A DNA stretch of 42,041 bases from an uncultured Thermoanaerobaculia bacterium (GTDB taxonomy: Bacteria > Acidobacteriota > Thermoanaerobaculia > Multivoradales > CAZRFU01). Position numbers and translations under genes: made by a program. The stretch covers positions 1 to 42,041 of the forward strand of contig CAZRFU010000048.1 in the NCBI GenBank assembly GCA_964599475.1, read 5' to 3'. Of the stretch, positions 2,598-17,407 are shown piece by piece. The notes beneath the pieces are model-generated. The model was not told the DNA's origin, did no database searches, and saw only the letters and a program-made list of their open reading frames with translations. Every line of letters starts with the position of its first letter. Positions within the stretch are counted from its first letter, which is position 1.

Positions 2598-4289
2598 CTA
2601 CGGGACCGTCGCCGACCACGCCGTAGTGTCGCCGGCTTCGAAGCCGTCGGCCAGCACCACCTCGGTCGGGATCGGCGCGAAGGTGCGGAACCGGACCAAC
2701 GGACTGACCGCCACTCCGCCCGCCGCTGCGGGATCGGTGACATACCAGCGGCCGAACCACTCCTTCCCGACAAGGCTCGAGTCCTCTGCGATAGCCACGC
2801 TGATCGATCCGAAACCCGCCCCGGCGCCGACCCCTCCGAGCACGGTGGTCTCGAACACCAACGCCGCCGAGACCGGAGGCAGAAGACCGGGGTCTTGGTC
2901 GTCGACCGCAAGCAGCGCAGAGGCTCCGCCGAGACTGTTCCACACCCCCACCGTAAAGCTCGGGTTGCCGACCAACGCCGGCTCGAGGGCGACCATCCGC
3001 GGCTCGTGTCCGCCGCTGCCGAGGATGCCCGTGCCCTGGACCGAGGGGACCCGTGGCGACTCGGTGTAGAGCCGAGGCCGGTCGAAAGGCGGCTGTTCGG
3101 CGGCGAGGCGTGGGTCGGTCAGCGGACGACCGAGAAACGCGATGAGGTCGGCCTTCTGCTGCGGCGTCAAGCCGAGGGGCGGTCCGAGCTCGTTGGGAGT
3201 GAAGTCGCCGCCGCGATCGTAAAACTCGACCACCTCGGTCAGGTTGATCAGCCGGCCGTTGTGCATGTAGGGCGCCCGCAGTGCGACGTTGCGCAGGCTT
3301 GGTGTGCGCATCTTGCCTTCGTCGGCTGCCAGGCCGGTGACCTCCGACCGGCCGATGTCGTCGGTCCTGGGGCGGACGCCGGTGTAGTGGAAGGCGTGGT
3401 CGCTCATGATCGCGAACTGGTGACAGTTGTCGCAACGCCCGACGCCCGCAAAAATCACCCGCCCGGAAGCCTCCTGAGGCGTCAACCCAGTGTTGGTTGC
3501 CAGGAACTGATCGAAAGGGGTCTGATTGGTGAACTGCGTGCGCTCGTAACTCGCGATCGCCATTGCCGCTCGCGTCGCGCTGATTCCGGGGCTCCCGAAA
3601 GCTTCCTCGAACAGCTCTGGATAGCTGCGCCCGTTGATCCAGATGCGCAACGGCGTCGGAATCGATGGAGCCAGGGCCAGCGGCCGGGCAGTCGCGATGC
3701 GATCGATGGTGGCGAGCCAGTCGCGGCCGACGTGCCCCATCTCGACCTCGTTGACGGGCGGACCGACGGCCTGGCTCTCGAGCGCCGCGCCAAAGGGCAG
3801 CTCGGTGACCATGGTCACCGGATCGACGAAGGCCTCACCCGCCCGCCCATCCCAGAACAACTCCGGGGAATAGCCGGCATTGATGGCTGAGACCGTCCGG
3901 CGCGGTGTCACCTGGGGCAGCAGTCCAAACGCCGTCTGCCAGGAGTAGCTGCCATCGGCGTGGTTCAGGGGCACCCCCGGCGACCCGAAAACATCATCCG
4001 GGCCGCCGAAGACACCGTCGGGTCCGGGATGAACGGCAAGCTGGCTCGCTCCTGAGCGGGGGTCGTCTCCCCCGGCCGCCGGGATATGACACGTGCCGCA
4101 CGACACCGTTCGCGTCGACGACAGCTGCTCGTCCCAGAACAAGACCTTCCCCAACAGCGCCTTGGAAGGGGTGACCGGGTTGCCCGGCGGCTCCGGCGGG
4201 GGAGGCAGCTGCGCGCCGGCGGCCGCCGCAAGCCCTGTCAGCGCCACGATCCAGAGGCGGCCTGCCGTCGTCTTCGAAGCACCTGCCAT
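2598..4289 (-). CDS. Di-heme cytochrome c peroxidase (CCP/MauG family) with ~150-aa C-terminal extension ending in the shared tail ...VVLADGFEAGDTTAWSATVP
   Basis: Two CxxCH haem motifs (CGTCH, CDNCH). Signal peptide MAGASKTTAGRLWIVALTGLAAAAGAQ from the internal ATG at 4289. AAGGA RBS on the minus strand. Convergent with the CRTAC1 gene, with only a 15-bp gap. Confidence 0.85.
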   Translation of the reverse strand: MAGASKTTAGRLWIVALTGLAAAAGAQLPPPPEPPGNPVTPSKALLGKVLFWDEQLSSTRTVSCGTCHIPAAGGDDPRSGASQLAVHPGPDGVFGGPDDVFGSPGVPLNHADGSYSWQTAFGLLPQVTPRRTVSAINAGYSPELFWDGRAGEAFVDPVTMVTELPFGAALESQAVGPPVNEVEMGHVGRDWLATIDRIATARPLALAPSIPTPLRIWINGRSYPELFEEAFGSPGISATRAAMAIASYERTQFTNQTPFDQFLATNTGLTPQEASGRVIFAGVGRCDNCHQFAIMSDHAFHYTGVRPRTDDIGRSEVTGLAADEGKMRTPSLRNVALRAPYMHNGRLINLTEVVEFYDRGGDFTPNELGPPLGLTPQQKADLIAFLGRPLTDPRLAAEQPPFDRPRLYTESPRVPSVQGTGILGSGGHEPRMVALEPALVGNPSFTVGVWNSLGGASALLAVDDQDPGLLPPVSAALVFETTVLGGVGAGAGFGSISVAIAEDSSLVGKEWFGRWYVTDPAAAGGVAVSPLVRFRTFAPIPTEVVLADGFEAGDTTAWSATVP

Positions 4290-4356
4290 GTCGATGGTCC
4301 TTTCTTGGTCACGAACCTCATATGCTACCCTCCGATGCTGCAGGAGCAATAGGGAC

Positions 4357-5751
4357 ATGGAATCGACCCGTCGCCGCCATCATTGCGCGCTGTGCCTGAC
4401 CTCGGCCCTGCTGGTCGCTGCACCGGCGGTGGCTGGCGACTGGATCACCTACGTCGACCAAACCGTCACGCGGCTGGTAGCCGACGCCAGCGTCGGCGTT
4501 TCGGACATCCGCGAGAAGGACTACGCCATCGGTGACCTCGATCGCGACGGCGATCTCGATCTAGTCGTGGTCCGCAAGATCCCGTTTACCAACCCGGGCG
4601 GCTTTCGGAACGTCTTGTTCATGAACGAAAACGGCGTGATGACCGACCGGGCGGCGACCCTGGCACCCGCGTTCCTCGACGCCACCGACGATCGCGACGT
4701 CGAAATCGTCGATGTCGACGCAGACGGGTGGCTCGATGTCATCACCGCCGGCACCTTCGAAGAGCAGCCGCGGATCCTGATGAACCTCGGGCGGGTCGCG
4801 GGCGTGTGGCAGGGCCTCGAGTACCAGCCCAATCGGCTCCCGGTTCTCACCTCACCGACCGGCAACGGTCCGAAATTCTGCGGCCTGGGAGTCGGCGACA
4901 TCACCGGCGATGGTCGCCCGGAGCTCTACTTCACCGACTACCAAAACGACCTCGAGGACCGGCTGCTGATCAACAACGGCGCCGGGTTCTTCTCCGATCA
5001 GACGGCGACACGCCTGACCGAAGCGATGGTCGATTCGACCTTCGGCACCGACGCCGACATCGTCGATGTCAACGGCGACGGTTTCAACGACATCGTCAAG
5101 AACAACGCCACTGGAGGGGGCACCGGGATTCCCGTGGCGCCCTCTCCGGAAGGCTCGATTTCCCCGAGCGTCATGGTGCTCTACAACGACGGCACCGGCC
5201 ACTTCTCGGTCTTCGACGTCGTCAACAACGATGCGCCCTACATGGTGGCCCCGGCCGACTTCAACCGGGACTCGCGCCTCGACCTGTTCGTCGTCGACGA
5301 CGCGCAGGATCGCTACCTGATCAACACCGGCAACAACGTCCAAGGGCGTGCCCAGTTCACGACGGCCCTGGTCAGCACCTCTCCCAACACCAGTTTCTTC
5401 GGCGGCAACACCGAGGTCGCGGACCTCAACGGCGACGGCTTGCTCGACATCCTGGTCGCCGATGTCGACACCGACGCCCCCGGCTGCGGCGGTCGCATGG
5501 TCGCCCTGCGCGGCCAGGGCAGCCCGCCGGCCGTGTCCTTCAGCGATCCCCTGGCCGGCGGCAGTCGCCCGTGGGCGCCACAAGGGACTCACGATGTCAA
5601 GGCCTTTCACATCGACGCCGACGGGCTCCCCGACCTCTTCATTGGCACCTGCTCCGGGACCAAGATCTTCATGAGCGTCAACCCGGACTTCCTCTTCGCG
5701 GACGGCTTGGAAAGCGGCGACACCACCGCCTGGAGCTCGACGGCGCCGTAG
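4357..5751 (+). CDS. FG-GAP/VCBS repeat beta-propeller protein ending in the shared tail ...FLFADGLESGDTTAWSSTAP
   Basis: ATG at 4357 preceded by GGAG. Signal peptide (HHCALCLTSALLVAAPAVAG). At least seven DxDxDGxxD repeats (DLDRDGDLDLVVV, VDVDADGWLDVI, DITGDGRPELYF, VDVNGDGFNDIV, ADLNGDGLLDILV, HIDADGLPDLFIG). Divergent from the peroxidase gene, 67-bp intergenic. Confidence 0.8.
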   Translation: MESTRRRHHCALCLTSALLVAAPAVAGDWITYVDQTVTRLVADASVGVSDIREKDYAIGDLDRDGDLDLVVVRKIPFTNPGGFRNVLFMNENGVMTDRAATLAPAFLDATDDRDVEIVDVDADGWLDVITAGTFEEQPRILMNLGRVAGVWQGLEYQPNRLPVLTSPTGNGPKFCGLGVGDITGDGRPELYFTDYQNDLEDRLLINNGAGFFSDQTATRLTEAMVDSTFGTDADIVDVNGDGFNDIVKNNATGGGTGIPVAPSPEGSISPSVMVLYNDGTGHFSVFDVVNNDAPYMVAPADFNRDSRLDLFVVDDAQDRYLINTGNNVQGRAQFTTALVSTSPNTSFFGGNTEVADLNGDGLLDILVADVDTDAPGCGGRMVALRGQGSPPAVSFSDPLAGGSRPWAPQGTHDVKAFHIDADGLPDLFIGTCSGTKIFMSVNPDFLFADGLESGDTTAWSSTAP

Positions 5752-5840
5752 TGAGGTGCAGGCTCCCACCCGCCCCGCTGGCCCCTTGTTCCCGCTACCC
5801 GATACCCCAAGTAGCCGGTTCGCCACTCGCAAATTGCCCC

Positions 5841-5869
5841 TTGACACATTGCGCGCCCCGTGGCACTAT
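5841..5869 (+). promoter_or_regulatory. Putative sigma70-type promoter: TTGACA (5841-5846), 17-nt spacer, extended -10-like TGgCACTAT
   Basis: Perfect -35 hexamer. The -10 is weak (CACTAT) but preceded by TG. Positioned ~25 nt upstream of the small ORF RBS. Confidence 0.4.
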
Positions 5870-5893
5870 CTCATTCTCTTCGGAGCAACGACT

Positions 5894-6022
5894 ATGAAGA
5901 CCTACCCACTGCATCTCGACCCCTCCAGGAGTGACCGCAACGGTTGCTTCGGTGGCCTGTTGCCCAGCTGCCCAAGCCGGCTGGACGACGCCCAAGATGC
6001 TCGCGGAGAAGGTTTTCCGTAA
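5894..6022 (+). CDS. Small 42-aa ORF (MKTYPLHLDPSRSDRNGCFGGLLPSCPSRLDDAQDARGEGFP) in a compact promoter-RBS-ORF-terminator unit; could instead be a non-coding sRNA
   Basis: GGAG is 8 nt upstream of the ATG. TAA stop. A strong hairpin terminator follows. Three Cys. No recognisable family. Confidence 0.35.
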   Translation: MKTYPLHLDPSRSDRNGCFGGLLPSCPSRLDDAQDARGEGFP

Positions 6023-6049
6023 CACCGCCGACAGCTCGGTGTGACGCTG

Positions 6050-6089
6050 AGGCCTTCCGCGACGGTGTCGCGGAAGGCCTTTTTGCTTG
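6050..6089 (+). terminator. Intrinsic terminator: 14-bp perfect stem AGGCCTTCCGCGAC/GTCGCGGAAGGCCT, short loop, then TTTT
   Basis: Read directly from the sequence. Confidence 0.65.
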
Positions 6090-6313
6090 TGGCCTACGTC
6101 GTAGCCGTGGACGCCGTCCATACAGGATACGTGTATCAATTCTGACCAGAAAGAAGCACCAATAGCGAAAGACTTACAAAGTTCGGCATCGGACCGACGG
6201 CACTTCAGCCACACGAGGCGCGCGCCGAGTGTGTTGCGGTGAGGTGTTCCGGGTACGGGTTCCGAGTGCGGTGTCGAAGCGGGACGCGGCTGGTGGCCGC
6301 CGCACCATGCGGT

Positions 6314-6338
6314 TGGGGTTCGATTCCCCGACGGCCCA
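6314..6338 (+). other. tRNA 3'-end-like fragment: T-arm hairpin (TGGGG-TTCGATT-CCCCG) plus 7-nt acceptor-like strand ACGGCCC; no D or anticodon arm
   Basis: Canonical TTCGAxT T-loop between GGGG/CCCC. Upstream GGCCGCC could pair with GACGGCC (6/7), giving a minihelix. It abuts the tRNA-like element. Confidence 0.3.
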
Positions 6339-6408
6339 ACGGATAGCTCAACGGTAGAGCACGAGACTGAGGATCTCGGTGTTGCGGGTTCGAATCCCGC
6401 TCCCCACT
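6337..6408 (+). tRNA. tRNA-like element, probably a pseudo-tRNA: anticodon loop CUGAGGA (GAG), 5-nt variable loop, but the 5' acceptor strand cannot pair with the 3' strand
   Basis: D arm TA-GCTC-AACGGTA-GAGC. Anticodon stem CGAGA/TCTCG. T arm GCGGG-TTCGAAT-CCCGC. The 3' strand TCCCCAC-T has no complement in the 5' position (CAACGGA). GAG would be Leu, but the variable arm is short, so this is atypical. A small hairpin plus T-run follows at 6411-6430. Confidence 0.4.
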
Positions 6409-6767
6409 CTGCAGCAGTAGCTGCCCTTTTCGACGCCGATCGGGAGCCGGTTCGCCCCGAGTGATCGTCCTCGGCTGAGGGTTCGCTCTCAGCTGAACGG
6501 CGATTCGGTCAGGACCCGACGGGTACGCCCGTCGAGGTCCAGCAGCCGCAACGGCCTCGAGCCCCGCCTCGCCTCGGCCAGACCGTGTGAGCCACCGTGC
6601 TCACCCGGAAGGTCGAGGAAGAGCGACGGCCCGCCACCAGCGCCTGTGACCCGCGGCAGAACCGGCTCCCGTGACGCATGCCGAACGACGAACGATCCCG
6701 CGCACGACGCTGCGCACAACCGGCGTGTGTCCACGCCACGACCCCTACGGGGAGGAAGGAGAAGGAG

Positions 6768-7871
6768 ATGAAGATCTTGTGGTTTCGGGTCGGTGCCTAC
6801 GAGCGGGCGTTGGTCTTCCGCGATGGCGCCCTGACCGAGGTGTTGGGGCCGGGCCTGCACCTGCGCGCTGCGCTGTTCGAGCAGCTCGAGGTCGAGACCT
6901 TTTCGGAGCGGTGGCCGTTCATCACCAGCGAGCGGCTCGACGTGATTGCGCGCTCGGGCCGGCTTGCCGCTGAGACCCGGCTGCTCGAGCTCGGCGACCG
7001 CGAGCGCGCCATCGTGCGTGTCGACGGGCGTTTGGCTCGGGTGCTCGGCCCGGGACGAACGATGCTCTGGACCGGCTTTGCGAAGGTCGAGGTCGAGGTG
7101 CTGGACGCCGGAGCAGTCCGGCTCGAGCGCAGCGATCTGAAGACCGTGCTCGCTCTCGAGGGTGCCCGTTCGTGGATCGAAGAGGTGGTCGTGCCGCAGG
7201 GCTCGATCGGCCTGGTCTACCTCGGCGGTGAAGTCCGCGAGGTGCTCCAGGCGGGTGCCTACGCCTTCTGGCGTGGGGTCGCCCACCTCGAGGTCAAGAC
7301 CGTCGACACTCGGCTCCAGGTGCTCGAGGTGGCGGGCCAGGATCTCCTGACCGCGGATCTGGTTTCGGTGCGTCTCAACGCCACGGCGATGGTGCGCATC
7401 AGCGACCCGGTCCGGGCTCTGGCGGCGGCAGAGTCTGCCACCCAGGCGCTCTACCGCGAGGCGCAGCTGGTGGTTCGTGCGGTGGTTGGCGCTCGCACCC
7501 TCGATCAGCTGTTGGCATCGAAGGTCGAGGTCGCCGGGGAGCTCGACACCGCGCTGCGGGCAAAGGCTTCGCTGCTCGGAATCGAGATCGAATCGTTCGG
7601 TATTCGCGACATCGTGTTGCCGGGCGAGATGAAGGCGATCATGAACCGGGTGACCGAGGCGCGCAAGGCGGCCGAGGCCAACCTCGTCACGCGCCGTGAG
7701 GAGACTGCGGCGATGCGTTCGCAGCTCAACACGGCGCGCCTGCTCGAGGGAAACCCGACGCTCATGCGTCTGCGCGAGCTCGAGGTGCTCGAGAAGGTGG
7801 CCGAGAAGACCAACCTCCAGGTCCTGCTCGGCGAAGGCCGCCTGACCGAGCGTGTCGTCAAGCTGATTTGA
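6768..7871 (+). CDS. SPFH/band-7 (stomatin/prohibitin-like) domain protein
   Basis: Strong RBS GGAGAAGGAGA before the ATG. SPFH-type sequence with a C-terminal coiled-coil (…GIRDIVLPGEMKAIMNRVTEARKAAEANLVTRREETAAMRSQ…). Confidence 0.85.
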   Translation: MKILWFRVGAYERALVFRDGALTEVLGPGLHLRAALFEQLEVETFSERWPFITSERLDVIARSGRLAAETRLLELGDRERAIVRVDGRLARVLGPGRTMLWTGFAKVEVEVLDAGAVRLERSDLKTVLALEGARSWIEEVVVPQGSIGLVYLGGEVREVLQAGAYAFWRGVAHLEVKTVDTRLQVLEVAGQDLLTADLVSVRLNATAMVRISDPVRALAAAESATQALYREAQLVVRAVVGARTLDQLLASKVEVAGELDTALRAKASLLGIEIESFGIRDIVLPGEMKAIMNRVTEARKAAEANLVTRREETAAMRSQLNTARLLEGNPTLMRLRELEVLEKVAEKTNLQVLLGEGRLTERVVKLI

Positions 7872-7927: not shown

Positions 7928-8011
7928 CCCTCCGTGGTACACCCCGGCCGGATGAGAACGGAGGCTTCGGTGCACCGCTACCAAGGTACCGGGTACCCGG
8001 TACCCTTGCAC
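7928..8011. repeat. Intergenic repeat copy B: box CCTCCGTGGTACACCCCGG..GGATGAGAACGGAGG, second GGTGCACC core, GGTACCN heptamers (7985-8011)
   Basis: Lies between the convergent SPFH and OsmC genes. Matches copies A, C, D and E. Confidence 0.55.
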
Positions 8012-9382: not shown

Positions 9383-9414
9383 GAGGGATCCGGGACTCGG
9401 GAGCCGGGATCCGC
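9383..9414 (+). repeat. G-quadruplex-prone tandem octamer array GGAGGGATCC GGGACTC GGGAGCC GGGATCCG immediately after the SDR stop codon
   Basis: Four GGG tracts with 4-nt loops on the coding strand. A second G-rich tract lies on the minus strand at ~9440-9470, just after the minus-strand gene ending at 9477. Confidence 0.5.
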
Positions 9415-11717: not shown

Positions 11718-11961
11718 CCCTTACTTTCGTCAGTGGTCGCCGGCGCGGGTCTGGGCGAAGCTGGGAGACGCAGGCGGTCGAGCCAGGTCCGCACTCCTGG
11801 GCTTCGCGCTCCTTGGCTCGATCGCCTGCGCCTGACTCGATGGCGAAGTGCCGGAGCTCGACCGGCACCCGCTCCGCGCCGCGCGCGACGAGCCCAACGA
11901 GCCCGACCCCCGCCCTGGAGGGTGGTGCCCCTGCGGGTCGGCTTGGCTGACACTTGATGGT

Positions 11962-12897
11962 ATGGACGGTCCCCTGCCCAAGGTCGGCGAGACCCCGCTG
12001 CTCGAGATCGAAGGCGTCTATGCCAAGCTCGAGTGCGTCAACCCGTGCGGGTCGATCAAAGACCGCGTAGCCCGCTACATCCTCGAAACCAGCCGCGAAC
12101 GCGGGCTCTTGGCACCGGGGCAGCGGATCGTCGAAGCCACCAGCGGCAACACCGGCATCGCGCTCGCCTACTTCGCACGCGAGCTCGGGCACCCGATCAC
12201 GGTGGTGATGCCGGAGAACATGACCGAGGAGCGCAAGGCGATGATCCGCGGCTTTGGCGCCGAGCTGGTCTTGTGCTCGGCCGAAGGGTCGTTTGCCGAG
12301 GCGGCGGCGATTCGGGATCGGCTGGCCGCCGAAAACGGCTGGTTCAACCCGGATCAGTTCTCGAACCCGCTCAACGCCGAGTGTCACGAACACACCACCG
12401 GTGCCGAGCTGGTCGCGCAACTCGGAGGGCGGGAGGTGGGAGCGTTCGTGGCCGGCGTCGGCACCGGCGGAACTCTGGTTGGCGTCGGCTCCGCGCTCAA
12501 GACGAGTTACCCCGACCTCCGGATCGTGGCCGTCGAACCCGAGGAATCTGCGGTGATGAGCGGCGGTGCACCGGGCGAGCATGGAATATCGGGTATCGGC
12601 GACGGCTTCGTTCCGGCGCTCGCGACCGACGGCGGCCACGGCTTGCACCCGCTGATCGACGAGGTCCTCTGCGTACCGACCACCGAAGCGGTGGCAGCGG
12701 CACAACGACTCGCGCGCGAGCATGGCGTTTGCGTCGGCGTTTCGTCGGGCGCCAACTTCGTCGCGGCACAACGCCTGCGACCGCGCTTCGGGGCGATCGC
12801 CACGGTCTTTGCCGACGGCTTCACCAAGTACCAGTCGCGTGGCCTGTTCCGGTGCGAGCCGGGTCGATGCCCGTACGAGCACGAGCTGGTCCGCTAG
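11962..12897 (+). CDS. cysK: Cysteine synthase (O-acetylserine sulfhydrylase, PLP-dependent)
   Basis: PLP-Lys motif (CVNPCGSIKDR), TSGNTG motif and GTGGT loop. Whether it is CysK or CysM is not resolved. Confidence 0.85.
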   Translation: MDGPLPKVGETPLLEIEGVYAKLECVNPCGSIKDRVARYILETSRERGLLAPGQRIVEATSGNTGIALAYFARELGHPITVVMPENMTEERKAMIRGFGAELVLCSAEGSFAEAAAIRDRLAAENGWFNPDQFSNPLNAECHEHTTGAELVAQLGGREVGAFVAGVGTGGTLVGVGSALKTSYPDLRIVAVEPEESAVMSGGAPGEHGISGIGDGFVPALATDGGHGLHPLIDEVLCVPTTEAVAAAQRLAREHGVCVGVSSGANFVAAQRLRPRFGAIATVFADGFTKYQSRGLFRCEPGRCPYEHELVR

Positions 12898-12990
12898 CAC
12901 CCCTCCGCGGCGCACCCGGTCGACCAAAGACCGGTCCCTGGTCCCTGGTCCCAGATCCCCAGCACGCGTTGCCCAGTACCCGGTAACCCG
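12898..12990. repeat. Intergenic repeat copy C: box variant CCTCCGCGGCGCACCCGG, heptamers GGTCCCT x3 (12931-12960), then CAGTACCCGGTAACCCG
   Basis: Immediately after the cysK TAG. The minus strand gives a G4 motif (GGGG ATCT GGG ACCA GGG ACCA GGG). Confidence 0.55.
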
Positions 12991-13059
12991 ACGAGCGGCG
13001 GAAATTGGCGAGCGATGTCCGTCTCTCTGGCTGTCACCAGCCAGAGGAGGACCCTTTTC

Positions 13060-13431
13060 ATGTTCGGACGTTCGTCGCCTCGCCGCCTCACCCAACGTCG
13101 CCGATCCCACCGCCGGCGGTGGCGGGGACTGCTGCTCGCGGCACTGCTCACGCCGGCACTGGCCCAGGGCACCGATCTCCCTCCCGAGCCTGAGCTCGAG
13201 CCGGAGGGAACCACCGCCAGGCTCACCTTCACCATCGACTCGGGCGGCGGCACGTCGAGCTTCGGGACAACCGAGCTCACCGGCACCGTCGGCCAACCCG
13301 ATATTGGTGTCGCCACTGCCGGATCGATCGCGTTGATCGGCGGCTTCTGGGGCCGCGGCGTCCCCGATCACATCTTCACCGACGGCTTCGAGTCGGGCGA
13401 CTCGAGCGCCTGGTCGGCCACTGTCCCCTGA
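13060..13431 (+). CDS. Small secreted protein (~123 aa) ending in the shared tail ...[19 protein letters not shown]; upstream partner of the collagen-like gene
   Basis: GAGGAGGA RBS before the ATG at 13060. Arg-rich n-region plus hydrophobic signal ([17 protein letters not shown]). Gly/Thr-rich beta-like body. The stop lies 19 nt before the collagen-like gene start. Confidence 0.65.
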
Positions 13432-13450
13432 TCTCGTGGAGGAATCAACC

Positions 13451-15460
13451 ATGTCAGCTCGCCTCGCGTCCAGCCTGATGGCGCTTGCTCTTGCCCTGGT
13501 CACGGGCACCGGCATCGCCCAATCGACCAACTTCACCTACCAGGGCCGCCTGCTGCAAGGCAACACACCGGCCAACGGTCTGTTCGACTTCGAGTTTCGC
13601 GCCTTCGACGATCCTTCGGGCGGCAGCCAGGTGGGATTCGTCTCGACCCATCTGAACGTCGACGTCGACCGCGGGCAGCTGCAGGTCGTGGTCGACTTCG
13701 GCCCCGGGGTGTTTGTCGGTGACCCGCTGTGGATCGAAATTTCGATGCGCCCAGCAGGTGCCGGCCCGTACGACATCCTGAGCCCGCGCCAGCTGGTCAC
13801 GCCCGCACCTCTGGCGATCAACGCCGACACCGTCGACGGCTTGGATTCGACCGAGCTGCAGGGGCAAACCGGCCCAGCCGGCCCCCCCGGGCCGGTCGGC
13901 GCGCCCGGCATCGATGGCCTCGACGGCACCGCGGTGCTGCACGGCGCCGGGGTTCCGAGCGACGGCCTCGGCATCGACGGGGACTTCTTCCTCGATACCA
14001 CCTCCACGAGCCTCTGGGGCCCCAAGGCCGGCGGCACCTGGGTCGGATCCGGGCCGGTTGCCTTGATCGGTCCGACCGGCGCCCAAGGTCCGCCGGGGGC
14101 CACCGGTCCCGCAGGTCCGGCAGGCCCCCAGGGTGACACCGGCGCGACCGGTGCCACCGGTGCGACAGGCGCAACGGGAGCAACGGGTCCGCAGGGCATC
14201 CCCGGTCTCGACGGCCGCACCGTGCACTCCGATGCAGCCTCTCCAGGTGACGGCGTCGGCGCTGACGGCGACTTCTTCATCGACACCACCGGGCCGGCAC
14301 TCTGGGGCCCGAAGGCCTCCGGAACCTGGGCCGGCACCGGTCCGACCTCGATGGTTGGGCCAACCGGCGCGACGGGAGCCCAAGGTCCACAGGGTGATCC
14401 CGGTCCGCAGGGACCGATCGGCGCCACCGGGCCGCAGGGCGCCACCGGGCCACAGGGCGCGGTTGGTCCGCAGGGCCCTGCCGGGCCCCAGGGACTCCAA
14501 GGCGACGCCGGCCCAGCTGGACCGCAAGGTCCTGCGGGACCCCAGGGATCCCAGGGCGACCCCGGCCCAACCGGACCGCAGGGCCCCGCCGGCCCACAAG
14601 GGCTGCAAGGCGACACCGGCCCCGCCGGACCGCAAGGTGATCCCGGGATCCAAGGCCCTGCCGGCGCTACCGGCCCACAAGGTTCCGCCGGCCCCCAGGG
14701 AGACCCCGGCGCGACCGGAGCCCAAGGAGATCCCGGGCCGCCAGGGCCTCCCGGGGCACAAGGGCCGATGGGTCCGCAGGGGCCCCAGGGTGAACAAGGG
14801 ATCCAGGGCGAACCGGGCCCGGCCGGGCCCAGCGGCACCCCGGGTGGTGGCACCAACCGCGTGATCCGATGGAACGTCTTCAGCACCTACGACCAGAATG
14901 CCGGCTGGCTGGCCGCGAACAACGCCGACCTGTTCGGGGGCGTCAACCCGTCGAACTGGACCGACAACAACTACCGCGCCGACCAGATGAGCAGCAACAA
15001 GGACGTTCTACGCGCGCTGCTGACCCGCAAGGGGTACCCCGGCAACGACATGTTGCTGTACGCCGAAACCTGGGGCTACTACTCCTCGACCAACGGCCGG
15101 GTGGTGGTGGCGCTGGTGCGGATTCGCAACACCACCTTGGCGCCGATCGACTGGAACGTACGCTTCCACCACACCTGCTACCAGAACTGGAGCGAGCTTG
15201 CGAGCATCGCCGTCAATGGGGTCTTGCACTGGAGCTCCGCCCCACCGGCACTGAACTGCTCCTCGCAGACGCCGCTCAACACCACCATCTCGATCCCCGC
15301 CAACCGCACCAGCAGCGTGGTCTTCGTCTCGACCTCGAGCATACCGTCGGGCACCACCCGTTCGACCCTGATGGCCTTCTCGAACAACACTTTCCTGCTG
15401 CCGGCCGGGCTCGAGCTGGTCGACGACTTCGAAACCGCCACCGGAGGCTGGGAGCAGTAG
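13451..15460 (+). CDS. Secreted collagen-like triple-helix repeat protein with N-terminal FTYQGRL... domain and a sequon-rich C-terminal globular domain
   Basis: GGAGGA RBS before the ATG at 13451. Signal peptide. Three G-X-Y runs (~200 residues in total). Internal duplicate G(I/A)DGDFF(L/I)DTT...LWGPKA(G/S)GTW(V/A)G(S/T)GP. C-terminus [14 protein letters not shown] loosely resembles the shared tail. The C-terminal domain has many N-x-T/S. Confidence 0.85.
13860..14830 (+). repeat. GGN-rich collagen-encoding tandem repeats, including a perfect (GAT)5-coding run (~14139-14190)
   Basis: Read directly. Explains the long proline-rich antisense ORFs 13454..14797 and 13537..14886. Confidence 0.7.
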
Positions 15461-15467
15461 CGTCGAG

Positions 15468-15555
15468 CCGGTGGGTGCACCGGCGCGCTGATGGGGCCGG
15501 CGAGCGGCGCTGCAACCGGAGGGGACCGGGGACCGGGGACCAGGGACTTTTCCGG
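15468..15555. repeat. Intergenic repeat copy D: GGTGGGTGCACCGG near-palindrome, then GGAGGGGACC GGGGACC GGGGACC AGGGAC (G4 motif on + strand), then TTTTCC
   Basis: Immediately after the collagen-like gene TAG. Confidence 0.55.
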
Positions 15556-15754
15556 AGCGCGCATCCGCCGACACCAAGGTCCGCCCCGGGGGCTTCGATG
15601 AGGCCTCCGGGGTTCGCCTCAGGTGGCTTCCTGCTTGGTACACTCGTCGGGCCCGAGGCGGTCCGGCGACGGCCTCGAATGAGCCGGTGGGCGAGGGATC
15701 TTCGCCATTCCTCCCACACCGGCCTCGCCCGGCCACCACCATCAGGAGACCGCC

Positions 15755-17407
15755 TTGTCGACGTTGCGAGCCTCGCGCCTTCATCTCACCGCCTGCCTCC
15801 TTCTGACCGCCACCGGCACCGCGTCCTTTGCCGCAACCCTGGAGGCACCGCGCAAAGTCCAGGCAGGAGCCGAGATCACCGTGCAGTGGTCGGCCACCGT
15901 CGGCGAGGGGGACTTCATCAGCCTCGACCCTTCCGGCGCCCCCGACCACGAATACGGCGATTGGGTCTACCCCGGTGACGAGAGCACCGTCACCTTTCAG
16001 GCGCCGGGAGCTCCGGGCTCCTACGCGGTGCGCTACCACTCGGGTGGGGCCGGCTACAAAGTCTTGGCGACGGCACCGGTGGAGGTCGTCGCAGCCACCG
16101 CGACGGTGCGTGCGCCGGCGAGCGCAGCGGCTGGAGCCACGATCGAGGTTTCGTGGGACGGTCCCCTCAACCAGGGTGACTTCGTCAGCATCGACCCCGC
16201 CGGCGCCCCGGACCACGAGTACGGCGCCTACGTCTACGCCGACCGCGGCAATCCCGCCTCCTTGCCGGCACCCGACAGCGCCGGACCCTACGAAGTGCGC
16301 TATCACCTCGGCGCCAGTGGCTACGCCGTGATCGGATCGAGCCCCCTGACGGTCTCCGCCACCAGCGCCAGCGTCAAAGTCGCCACCCCCGTCGTGGCCG
16401 GCGAAACCTTCGAGGTTGCCTTTACCGGGCCCAACAACGAGAACGACTTCATCACCATCGTCCCCGAGGGCACTGCCGAGCGAGAGTACGGCAACTGGGC
16501 GGCGACTCGCCTCGGCAGCCCGGCGAAGCTCGAGGCGCCCAAACGAGCCGGTCGCTACGAGGTGCGCTACGCCACCGGCCAGGACTACCGCACGCTCGCG
16601 CGCGCCGCGGTCGAAGTGAGCCCTGGCCGACGCGGATCGCTGCGGGTGGTGGGCCGGACCGGCGGCACTGCGGCGACGGCTCCGGGAGCGGTCGAGGTGA
16701 TCCTCGACGCTTCGGGCAGCATGCTCCAGAAGATCGAAGGGACGCGGCGCATCGAGCTCGCCCGTGCTGCCCTGCTCGACCTGACCGGCTCGGCGCTCTC
16801 CGCCGGGACGCCTTTCGCCCTGCGCGTCTTCGGTCATCGCGAGGCCAACTCCTGTCGCACCGATCTCGAGCTGCCGCTCGCGGCGCTCGATCCGGCCAAG
16901 GCGTCCGCCACGATTGGGTCGATCGAGGCCAAGAACCTCGCCAAGACCCCAATCGCCGACTCCCTTCGGCGCGTGCGCGAGGACCTCGCCGCGGCTTCCG
17001 GGCGGCGAGTTGTGGTGCTGATCACCGACGGCGAGGAAACCTGCGGCGGCGACCCGGCCGCAGCGATCCGTGAGCTGCGCCAGGCAGGCATCGAGGTCGA
17101 GGTGTCGATCGTCGGTTTTGCCATCGACCAGCTGGCGCTCAAAGAACAGTTCCGCTCCTGGGCCAAGCTCGGTGGCGGGCTCTACCTCGATGCTGCCGAC
17201 GGCGAAGCGCTGCAGAAGGCGGTGCGCGGCGCGGTCGCGACGAGTTTCGATGTCGTTCAGGGCGGAAAGGTCATCACGACCGGGGCGGTCGGTGGCCCCG
17301 CGATTGACCTGCCGGCCGGAGGCTACGCGGTGCAAGTCGCCGGCCGGACCGTCGGCGAGGTGAGCATCGCCGCCGGCAAAGAAGTGGCGTTCACGCTGCC
17401 ACACTGA
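15755..17407 (+). CDS. Secreted VWA-domain protein with three tandem ~95-aa N-terminal repeat domains
   Basis: TTG start with a CAGGAGA RBS. Signal peptide. Three repeats carrying G(D/N)F(I/V)S(L/I)DPAGAPDHEYG...YEVRYH. C-terminal VWA fold with a DxSxS MIDAS motif (ILDASGSM) and ITDGEE. Confidence 0.8.
   Translation: MSTLRASRLHLTACLLLTATGTASFAATLEAPRKVQAGAEITVQWSATVGEGDFISLDPSGAPDHEYGDWVYPGDESTVTFQAPGAPGSYAVRYHSGGAGYKVLATAPVEVVAATATVRAPASAAAGATIEVSWDGPLNQGDFVSIDPAGAPDHEYGAYVYADRGNPASLPAPDSAGPYEVRYHLGASGYAVIGSSPLTVSATSASVKVATPVVAGETFEVAFTGPNNENDFITIVPEGTAEREYGNWAATRLGSPAKLEAPKRAGRYEVRYATGQDYRTLARAAVEVSPGRRGSLRVVGRTGGTAATAPGAVEVILDASGSMLQKIEGTRRIELARAALLDLTGSALSAGTPFALRVFGHREANSCRTDLELPLAALDPAKASATIGSIEAKNLAKTPIADSLRRVREDLAAASGRRVVVLITDGEETCGGDPAAAIRELRQAGIEVEVSIVGFAIDQLALKEQFRSWAKLGGGLYLDAADGEALQKAVRGAVATSFDVVQGGKVITTGAVGGPAIDLPAGGYAVQVAGRTVGEVSIAAGKEVAFTLPH

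Follow-up and report, generated by a model that had tools for sequence, protein, structure and literature searches.

What holds the base of a secreted collagen-like fibre at the cell, and could a small protein encoded directly ahead of the fibre serve in this role? The question is raised by two adjoining genes at positions 13,060 to 15,460 of a 42,041-nucleotide (nt) stretch of contig CAZRFU010000048.1 (assembly GCA_964599475.1; "the window" below is this whole stretch of DNA that was analysed), the first encoding a small secreted protein that ends in a DGFESGD tail, the second a collagen-like fibre protein. The original prediction, made from the sequence alone, had tied the two proteins together through the tail, taking the C-terminus of the fibre for a degenerate copy of it. 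We found that the fibre carries no such tail and that a conserved core of about 45 amino acids (aa) in the small protein stays beside genes for the N-terminal domain of the fibre in several phyla. On balance, we lean towards regarding the two genes as one chromosomal operon of an Acidobacteriota-like bacterium, in which a fibre exported by Sec is encoded together with a conserved small partner.

Gene structure of the pair

The features of the two genes (all on the forward strand, +) are the following, where RBS stands for ribosome-binding site.

13044-13050 (+): RBS GAGGAGG of the small gene, read directly, 9 nt before the ATG at 13060
13060-13431 (+): gene of the small secreted protein, 123 aa, with signal peptide, beta-hairpin core and C-terminal tag; stop codon at 13429-13431
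13060-13164 (+): signal peptide of the small protein (aa 1-35), with Arg-rich n-region, LLLAALL h-region and cut after ALA, read from sequence
13219-13350 (+): conserved core of the small protein (aa 54-97; alignments A1, A2 and A6)
13369-13428 (+): C-terminal tag, 20 aa, the lineage-wide tail of Thermoanaerobaculia/Holophagae (tail profile)
13439-13444 (+): RBS GGAGGA of the collagen-like gene
13451-15460 (+): gene of the collagen-like fibre, 669 aa, with ATG at 13451 and an alternative GTG start at 13436
13451-13516 (+): signal peptide of the fibre (aa 1-22), cut between TGTGIA and QS, from sequence; homologues have AWA before Q there
13520-13855 (+): FTYQG N-domain (aa 24-135), modelled by AlphaFold2 as an all-beta Ig/FN3-like sandwich of ~105 aa
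13862-13933 (+): G-X-Y run 1, 8 triplets (aa 138-161)
13970-14056 (+): stalk module, copy 1
14069-14221 (+): G-X-Y run 2, 17 triplets (aa 207-257)
14258-14344 (+): stalk module, copy 2
14357-14851 (+): G-X-Y run 3, 55 triplets (aa 303-467)
14864-15457 (+): C-terminal globular domain (C-domain), 198 aa, modelled as a galactose-binding/PA14-like jelly-roll beta sandwich

Both genes have their own RBS. The prediction that they form one transcription unit is supported by the 19-nt gap between the small-gene stop and the fibre ATG, by the absence of a terminator-like site between them in a terminator scan (the only two matches, at 13966 and 14254, are within the collagen gene and no more than expected by chance), and by the conservation of the pair elsewhere. 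The 19 nt hold as the stop-to-ATG distance and not, as first stated, as the distance to the RBS, which begins 7 nt after the stop. In a near-identical contig from JGI (L001; L handles denote loci and P handles proteins) the same calls were made for both genes, and its small-protein homologue is 99% identical. The order small gene, then fibre gene is kept in L001, L002 (49% identity) and L068 (the orthologue-like P0013 locus), the gap being 15-16 nt in the latter two, and the genes of the pair share a start/stop overlap (ATGA) in L003 and L070.

The small protein and its variable C-terminal ends

The small protein is, as predicted, a Gly/Thr-rich protein of 123 aa (18% Gly and 15% Thr in the mature part) that ends in a DGFESGD tail. 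A word-index search returned only six relatives, and locus-based searches led to a large family, defined by a signal peptide, a ~45-aa core and an adjoining N-domain gene (alignments A1 and A6), to which the small protein belongs. All homologues have a hydrophobic N-terminal leader. The core has the motif TIDSGGG...GTVGQP/GTIGQP...GGFW and, judged from its sequence, looks like two GGxYxLxG hairpin-like repeats. With an alignment of the core only, at least 561 confirmed matches were obtained from metagenomes.

The segment past GGFW varies with the lineage. In Acidobacteriota it is the 20-aa DGFESGD tail, shortened to ...DGFEN or ...NGFEP directly before the stop in L003 and L010; in Planctomycetes it is a dockerin/EF-hand-like module of 58-68 aa (one of these ends matches Dockerin_1 at E = 1e-3, below the Pfam cut-off); and in Verrucomicrobia-type loci it is a beta domain of ~75-80 aa ending in FYRLxxP. 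The core can also head much larger proteins. In L072 (6167-11152) it is the N-terminus of a 2294-aa adhesin-like SdrD_B/PKD/Big protein, and in the Bacteroidota-like L157 (7018-9402) a divergent core, YPSTGGYQAAGSATLSWTIGQPVQPTLTGGGKMLSQGFQQP (a variant of the type ...LSWTIGQP...MLSQGFQQP), heads a 794-aa PKD protein that ends in Por_Secre_tail, the sorting domain of the type IX secretion system (T9SS). Both proteins are encoded directly downstream of a fibre gene with N-domain and C-domain. No description of the small partner or of its lineage-specific C-terminal ends was found in the literature searched.

Some homologues carry short hydrophobic ends (e.g., ...FLPLIMR before the stop), 16-21 aa past GGFW; those in L112, L149, L125, L123 and L119 end in motifs of the types SQFFYDLFLPLIMR, NLIENFLPLILRP and YSIYLPVVVR, each followed by the stop. 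These ends may be another lineage-specific C-terminal signal.

The core is linked to the N-domain across phyla

In L003, L004, L005, L007, L010, L020, L022, L045 and L051 the core gene adjoins an N-domain gene in the same orientation, with varying gene order (fibre-small in L003, two pairs in a row in L004, fibre-fibre-small-fibre in L007 and fibre-fibre-small in L051). The pairing occurs in Acidobacteriota, Planctomycetota, Verrucomicrobiota and Gammaproteobacteria, the loci coming from metagenome-assembled genomes (MAGs) of Holophagae, Acidobacteriota, Phycisphaerales, Pirellulales, Verrucomicrobiia and Ahniellaceae. From a metagenome sample, 80 loci were kept, with 21 core instances that had enough flanking sequence to be informative; 20 of the 21 have an N-domain gene on the same strand, mostly directly adjoining, and the distance from fibre stop to core start is 50-330 nt. 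Loci that were found through the C-domain are unbiased for the small gene:

L068: core-bearing gene nearby
L070: core-bearing gene nearby, one small gene among three N-domain fibre genes with different tips
L072: core-bearing gene nearby, the core being the N-terminus of the 2294-aa adhesin-like protein
L157/L158: core-bearing gene nearby
L159/L160: ambiguous
L161/L162: no core-bearing gene nearby

The N-domain follows directly on the signal peptide, starting at about residue 24-30. A search for its homologues, which the original prediction had proposed from the FTYQGRL motif, was productive: a word-index search gave 10 short fragments only, and our own hidden Markov model (HMM), with jackhmmer run on the fetched sequences, detected the domain in many open reading frames (ORFs) of the loci and, among the 150 C-domain representatives listed, in 55. 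It is followed by collagen and/or YadA-like repeats and Peptidase_S74 in L051 (twice), L045, L020, L007 and L070, by a beta-helix in L003, L004 and L005, and by collagen and another domain in L022, so that the partner fibres differ only past the N-domain. The domain has no Pfam model and was newly delimited here. Because the core and the N-domain stay linked across phyla while everything else is exchanged, we infer that the two are likely to be in contact.

Stalk and tip of the fibre

The layout predicted for the collagen-like protein, an FTYQGRL N-terminus and three G-X-Y runs, was recovered, and so was the duplicated module G[IA]DGDFF[LI]DTT...LWGPKAxGTWxGxGP in the two copies given above. 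Only the collagen repeats of the fibre are recognised by Pfam (Collagen, PF01391, E = 1.7e-36 and 124 bits for the whole protein against a cut-off of 27.2), which places it among the collagen-repeat proteins; these repeats, as the sole basis, suggest that the fibre is trimeric. The stalk module matches no Pfam model. It recurs as GDF[FY][LI][DN]T...[IL][FWY]GPK in P0013, P0065, P0079 and P0123, with five tandem copies in P0137, and is registered by TRF and the terminator scan only as chance hairpins.

When the C-terminal 198 aa were searched exhaustively with HMMER, 372 cluster representatives were obtained (222 with E <= 1e-30), and most matches reach the last residue of query and target alike, which delimits a C-domain family of ~195 aa. 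AlphaFold2 modelled the domain from a 56-sequence alignment with high confidence (pLDDT 95.6, pTM 0.92) as a beta sandwich with three short helices. The fold comparison that the original prediction had called for, between a C1q/TNF-like and a phage-fibre-like domain, favoured neither: a C1q/TNF tip was rejected, viral models gave only weak Foldseek matches (best TM-score 0.47), and a PA14-like jelly roll was obtained in their place. The PA14 and GH2 N-terminal sugar-binding jelly rolls have 8-12% identity to the C-domain, which has ~70 residues beyond the shared core. The C-domain had no sequence match in Pfam, NCBIfam or the PDB, PDB sequence and profile searches with all three modules gave no significant match, and cluster look-ups gave no informative name, "hypothetical protein" being the sole label. 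On the predicted structure, the C-domain thus adds a new sequence family, without a Pfam model, to the galactose-binding/PA14-like jelly rolls; the simplest reading is that of a lectin-like tip with a putative glycan ligand.

The density of N-x-S/T sequons noted in this domain was confirmed as a count (7 lie in the last 198 aa and 1 in the preceding 471 aa), but it is only marginally above chance: composition-matched shuffles have 3.8 +/- 1.6 sequons, and because 108 of 2000 reach 7 (p ~0.05) the density mostly reflects the N/S/T composition. A functional clustering of N-glycosylation sequons was therefore rejected.

The C-domain is found in other settings as well. It occurs in triple tandem copies in the giant proteins P0007-P0012, which reach 3554 aa; elsewhere it follows beta-propellers or Ig domains, and P0009 ends in PEP-CTERM. 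In the tandem proteins the linker past ...VD[DE]L enters the YRW strand of the next copy at about the offset of the GGW of single-copy proteins, and the terminal GGWEQ may imitate the first strand of a next copy or have arisen from it. Among 2.9 million viral contigs a single one bears the C-domain (L073, IMG/VR UViG_3300009481_005163, 42% G+C), where three tandem genes at 4449-7481, encoding 301-385 aa, each end in it, lack a signal peptide and the GGWEQ ending, and stand beside a sheath-like gene. This suggests that the C-domain is occasionally used as a phage receptor-binding tip.

The DGFESGD tail and the C-terminus of the fibre

The tail profile was built from 86 real tails, taken from the window and 64 genome loci. 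Its consensus is HIFSDGFESGDTSAWSSTVP followed by the stop, with the Trp usually exactly 5 residues before the stop, and its pattern at the extreme C-terminus is hIF[ST]DGFESGDxxAWSxxVP. All 86 tails score 32-55 bits (median 47.6); the small protein has every trait of the tail, its own score being circular, as it is among the 86 building sequences. The tail ends many unrelated ORFs of 71-2024 aa in MAGs of Thermoanaerobaculia and Holophagae. In the MAG loci L004-L067 at least 80 unrelated ORFs end in it, often several per locus, and in the window it is also found on di-haem cytochrome c peroxidase/MauG-like and FG-GAP repeat proteins (2601-4379, minus strand, and 4090-5751, plus strand). A minority of copies are internal (ahead of a PKD-like region in L016, at a domain start in L064).

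No NCBIfam model matches the tail, and no paper on the motif or on sorting signals of Thermoanaerobaculia was found in the literature searched. Like PEP-CTERM/exosortase, GlyGly-CTERM/rhombosortase and the C-terminal domain (CTD) of T9SS, it keeps a constant distance to the stop codon and is borne by many unrelated exported proteins within one lineage. It differs from PEP-CTERM and GlyGly-CTERM in having neither a transmembrane helix nor a basic cluster, and from the T9SS CTD in its size (20 aa versus a ~80-aa domain). We take the tail for a putative address or anchor tag of this lineage because the same slot of the small-protein family is occupied elsewhere by the T9SS sorting domain, in the Bacteroidota-like L157, and by the dockerin-like module.

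The suggestion that the collagen-like protein ends in a degenerate tail fails, because its end does not align with the real tails on the profile, the test that had been set beforehand. It scores 3.5 bits, and the ends of 65 scored members of the C-domain family have a median of -1.1 and a maximum of 3.6 bits. The end is the conserved terminus of this other family, with the consensus LPAGLE[FY]VDDL[DE]TATGGWEQ before the stop: the Asp residues D187 and D188 never vary, the apparent DDFE owes its F and E to local substitutions of L and D, and the Trp lies 2 residues from the end, where tails typically have it at 5. The final 10-residue block belongs to the modelled domain, with a mean pLDDT of 87.

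If both proteins were nevertheless substrates of one tail-recognising system, the collagen-like protein should carry the tail in degenerate form. The superficial D[DG]FE[ST]...W likeness near both C-termini is of this kind, and the collagen end lies at about the 99th percentile of control C-termini (16 of 1431 score as high or higher); against this stand its distance from the 32 bits of the weakest real tail, the family consensus DDLD instead of DDFE with the low family-wide median, the invariant Asp pair within confidently modelled last residues, and the use of the C-domain family with other sorting signals (PEP-CTERM in P0009, T9SS genes beside L157) and without tail matches. We regard a shared tail as very improbable.

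Comparison with known fibres

To our knowledge, Bdellovibrio is so far the only organism in which secreted, phage-like trimeric fibres with exchangeable tips have been investigated; its mosaic adhesive trimer (MAT) fibres mediate prey recognition. In B. bacteriovorus 21 MAT proteins have been described, 13 with Peptidase_S74 and 8 without (NS74), and in each of them a conserved beta-rich domain directly follows the signal peptide and is presumed to bind a surface element yet to be identified (Caulton et al. 2024, Nat Microbiol, PMC10769870). The fibres of the N-domain family have the same layout: a signal peptide, a conserved beta-rich N-domain (~100-130 aa) without a close PDB homologue, a stalk (trimeric in MAT fibres and predicted to be so here), interchangeable tips with Peptidase_S74 or without it, and several paralogues per genome or locus (compare L070 and L007). 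The present pair differs in the stalk, a beta-helix in MAT fibres versus collagen and GDFFxDTT modules here; in the host, a predatory Bdellovibrio versus an Acidobacteriota-like bacterium with no sign of predation; and in the small gene, since no small partner is mentioned in the passages of PMC10769870 consulted. In its architecture, the collagen-like fibre is a new member of the MAT-like mosaic fibres, with a tip domain that has not been described before.

The exosporium of Bacillus offers a second likeness: the collagen-like filament BclA is anchored by its N-terminal domain to a small basal-layer protein, ExsFA/BxpB. Our fibre would share with BclA the collagen-like trimer, the globular tip at the C-terminus and the attachment of its N-terminal end through a small separate protein, but the tip of BclA is C1q/TNF-like and that of our fibre is not, so that the fibre falls outside the BclA/C1q-TNF group; there is no sequence relation, and BclA belongs to a spore assembly system, the present pair to a Sec-exported system of Gram-negative type. 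Streptococcal Scl1/Scl2 and Legionella Lcl share the G-X-Y triple-helix region and a probable adhesin function. On their models (NF038330, NF038329, NF046116) the fibre scores 93-110 bits against cut-offs of 325-500, through the collagen region only; it has different N- and C-domains and lacks LPXTG (it ends in GGWEQ), and is not a member of the Scl/Lcl families. Phage tail fibres or tailspikes with S74 and their assembly proteins share the modular, here presumably also trimeric fibre, the swappable tip and the adjoining small gene, and sister fibres with the same N-domain as here carry Peptidase_S74. The pair does not belong with them: each of its products has a signal peptide, the genes lie on a chromosome among housekeeping genes, the families are nearly absent from viral contigs, and it is the N-terminus of the fibre, not the tip, that is conserved with the small gene.

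Proposed mechanism and alternatives

Both proteins would be exported by Sec. The fibre would trimerise through its collagen runs, with the N-domains forming its base and the C-terminal jelly roll serving as registration domain of the triple helix and, most likely, as glycan-binding tip. The hairpin core of the small protein would bind the base at the N-domains, and the tag would address or tether the complex to the cell envelope, so that the fibre stands base-in and tip-out. The surface-fibre part of the original prediction of a tail-linked surface-fibre or matrix module fits this architecture; the tail link does not, as the collagen protein has no tail. Our confidence in the descriptive findings is high; that the small protein is the anchor or docking factor for the fibre base comes in our estimate a little short of an even chance. 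More tentative is a wider, joint reading, in which the TIDSGGG...GGFW core would be the cell-surface receptor or anchor for MAT-type N-domains across several phyla, each phylum attaching the core by its own C-terminal module, and the DGFESGD...W-x4-P tail would be a previously undescribed sorting or anchoring signal on dozens of exported proteins per Thermoanaerobaculia/Holophagae genome.

Several observations weigh against an anchor of this kind. N-domain fibre genes without a recognisable core gene nearby exist (L161/L162, L154 and L155, with L159 ambiguous), and therefore the partner may work in trans or not be required. Unlike known membrane-anchoring sorting signals, the tag lacks a hydrophobic segment. 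The likeness to MAT fibres is one of architecture, the N-domain having been compared with the MAT N-domains by description.

Among the alternatives, which carry decreasing weight from an assembly factor through co-regulation and the shared tail discussed above to a prophage remnant, the first would make the small protein a periplasmic or extracellular folding/trimerisation chaperone or secretion pilot, its tag only routing the helper. Small genes that adjoin and often overlap fibre genes (L003, L070) are typical of fibre assembly factors, and in L070 three fibre genes are served by a single small gene; however, a core that heads large surface-type modules (the PKD protein with T9SS CTD in L157, the 2294-aa protein in L072) would be odd for a transient chaperone, and S74 fibres already have an intramolecular one, so that we consider this unlikely. 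Somewhat less probable still is that two independent secreted proteins (e.g., a matrix fibre and an unrelated matrix or S-layer-associated peptide) are merely co-regulated without contact. The variable gene order (small-fibre here, fibre-small in most other lineages) and the fibre genes without a small-gene neighbour agree with such an arrangement, but the linkage of core and N-domain across phyla, while the rest is exchanged, is the usual signature of interacting modules.

A prophage or tailocin remnant with a tail fibre and its assembly protein would account for the match of the collagen and GDFYxDT segments to PHROG tail-fibre families, for the Peptidase_S74 at the end of partner fibres elsewhere, and for the three C-domain genes beside the sheath-like gene of the viral contig L073. 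It was rejected, and seems to us hardly credible, in view of the signal peptides on both proteins, the chromosomal setting (68% G+C in the window, even across the region, with the PALP, VWA, DinB and purine biosynthesis (pur) housekeeping genes as neighbours) and the near absence of the families from 2.9 million viral contigs, which yielded no locus with the small protein, 1 with the C-domain and 3 with the N-domain.

With an anchoring role of the small protein, one small adaptor would hold interchangeable fibres. The locus and ~40 related loci offer a testable candidate for the partner of the fibre N-domain, one that is tiny, unannotated, widespread and encoded beside fibre genes, and the related loci suggest that this class of fibres is widespread in non-predatory soil and water bacteria. 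The analysis also delimited the N-domain and the tip domain (~195 aa, 372 representatives), two families that Pfam does not cover, and the slot shared with the T9SS sorting domain and the dockerin-like module is indirect evidence for the Acidobacteriota DGFESGD tail as an address tag. Should the anchor reading be wrong, the locus would be an ordinary, unannotated collagen-like adhesin operon.

Flanking repeats and other features of the window

The neighbours of the unit and the repeats at its edges are as follows.

11848-12897: cysteine-synthase-like PALP gene, upstream neighbour
12933-12952 (no strand): heptamer tandem array, GGTCCCT x3, 36 nt past the PALP gene, upstream edge of the unit
15521-15547 (no strand): heptamer tandem array, GGGGACC x4, 61 nt past the fibre stop, downstream edge of the unit
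15755-17407: VWA protein gene

The two arrays bracket the operon and are inverted relative to each other. A role as ends of a mobile cassette was rejected, as like arrays follow other genes of the window and are missing at L068. Intergenic heptamer arrays of 3-4 units are found at 70-98 (CGGGTCC), 2565-2593 (CCAACCC), 7985-8005 (GGTACCC) and 9385-9413 (GGGATCC) in addition to the two at the edges; five of the six lie directly past a stop codon, and three are between convergent genes. The array pattern is enriched, with 8 matches versus 0.5 expected; a possible role of the arrays in this genome is that of 3'-end or terminator-associated elements.

An out-of-frame plus-strand ORF at 14869-15978 had no relatives in a word-index search. 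The 3' end of the fibre gene is also overlapped, on the minus strand, by an ORF at 15178-15618 (146 aa, third-position G+C 0.83). Since the 372 relatives belong to the plus-strand product, this ORF is most likely an antisense artefact that stems from the high G+C.

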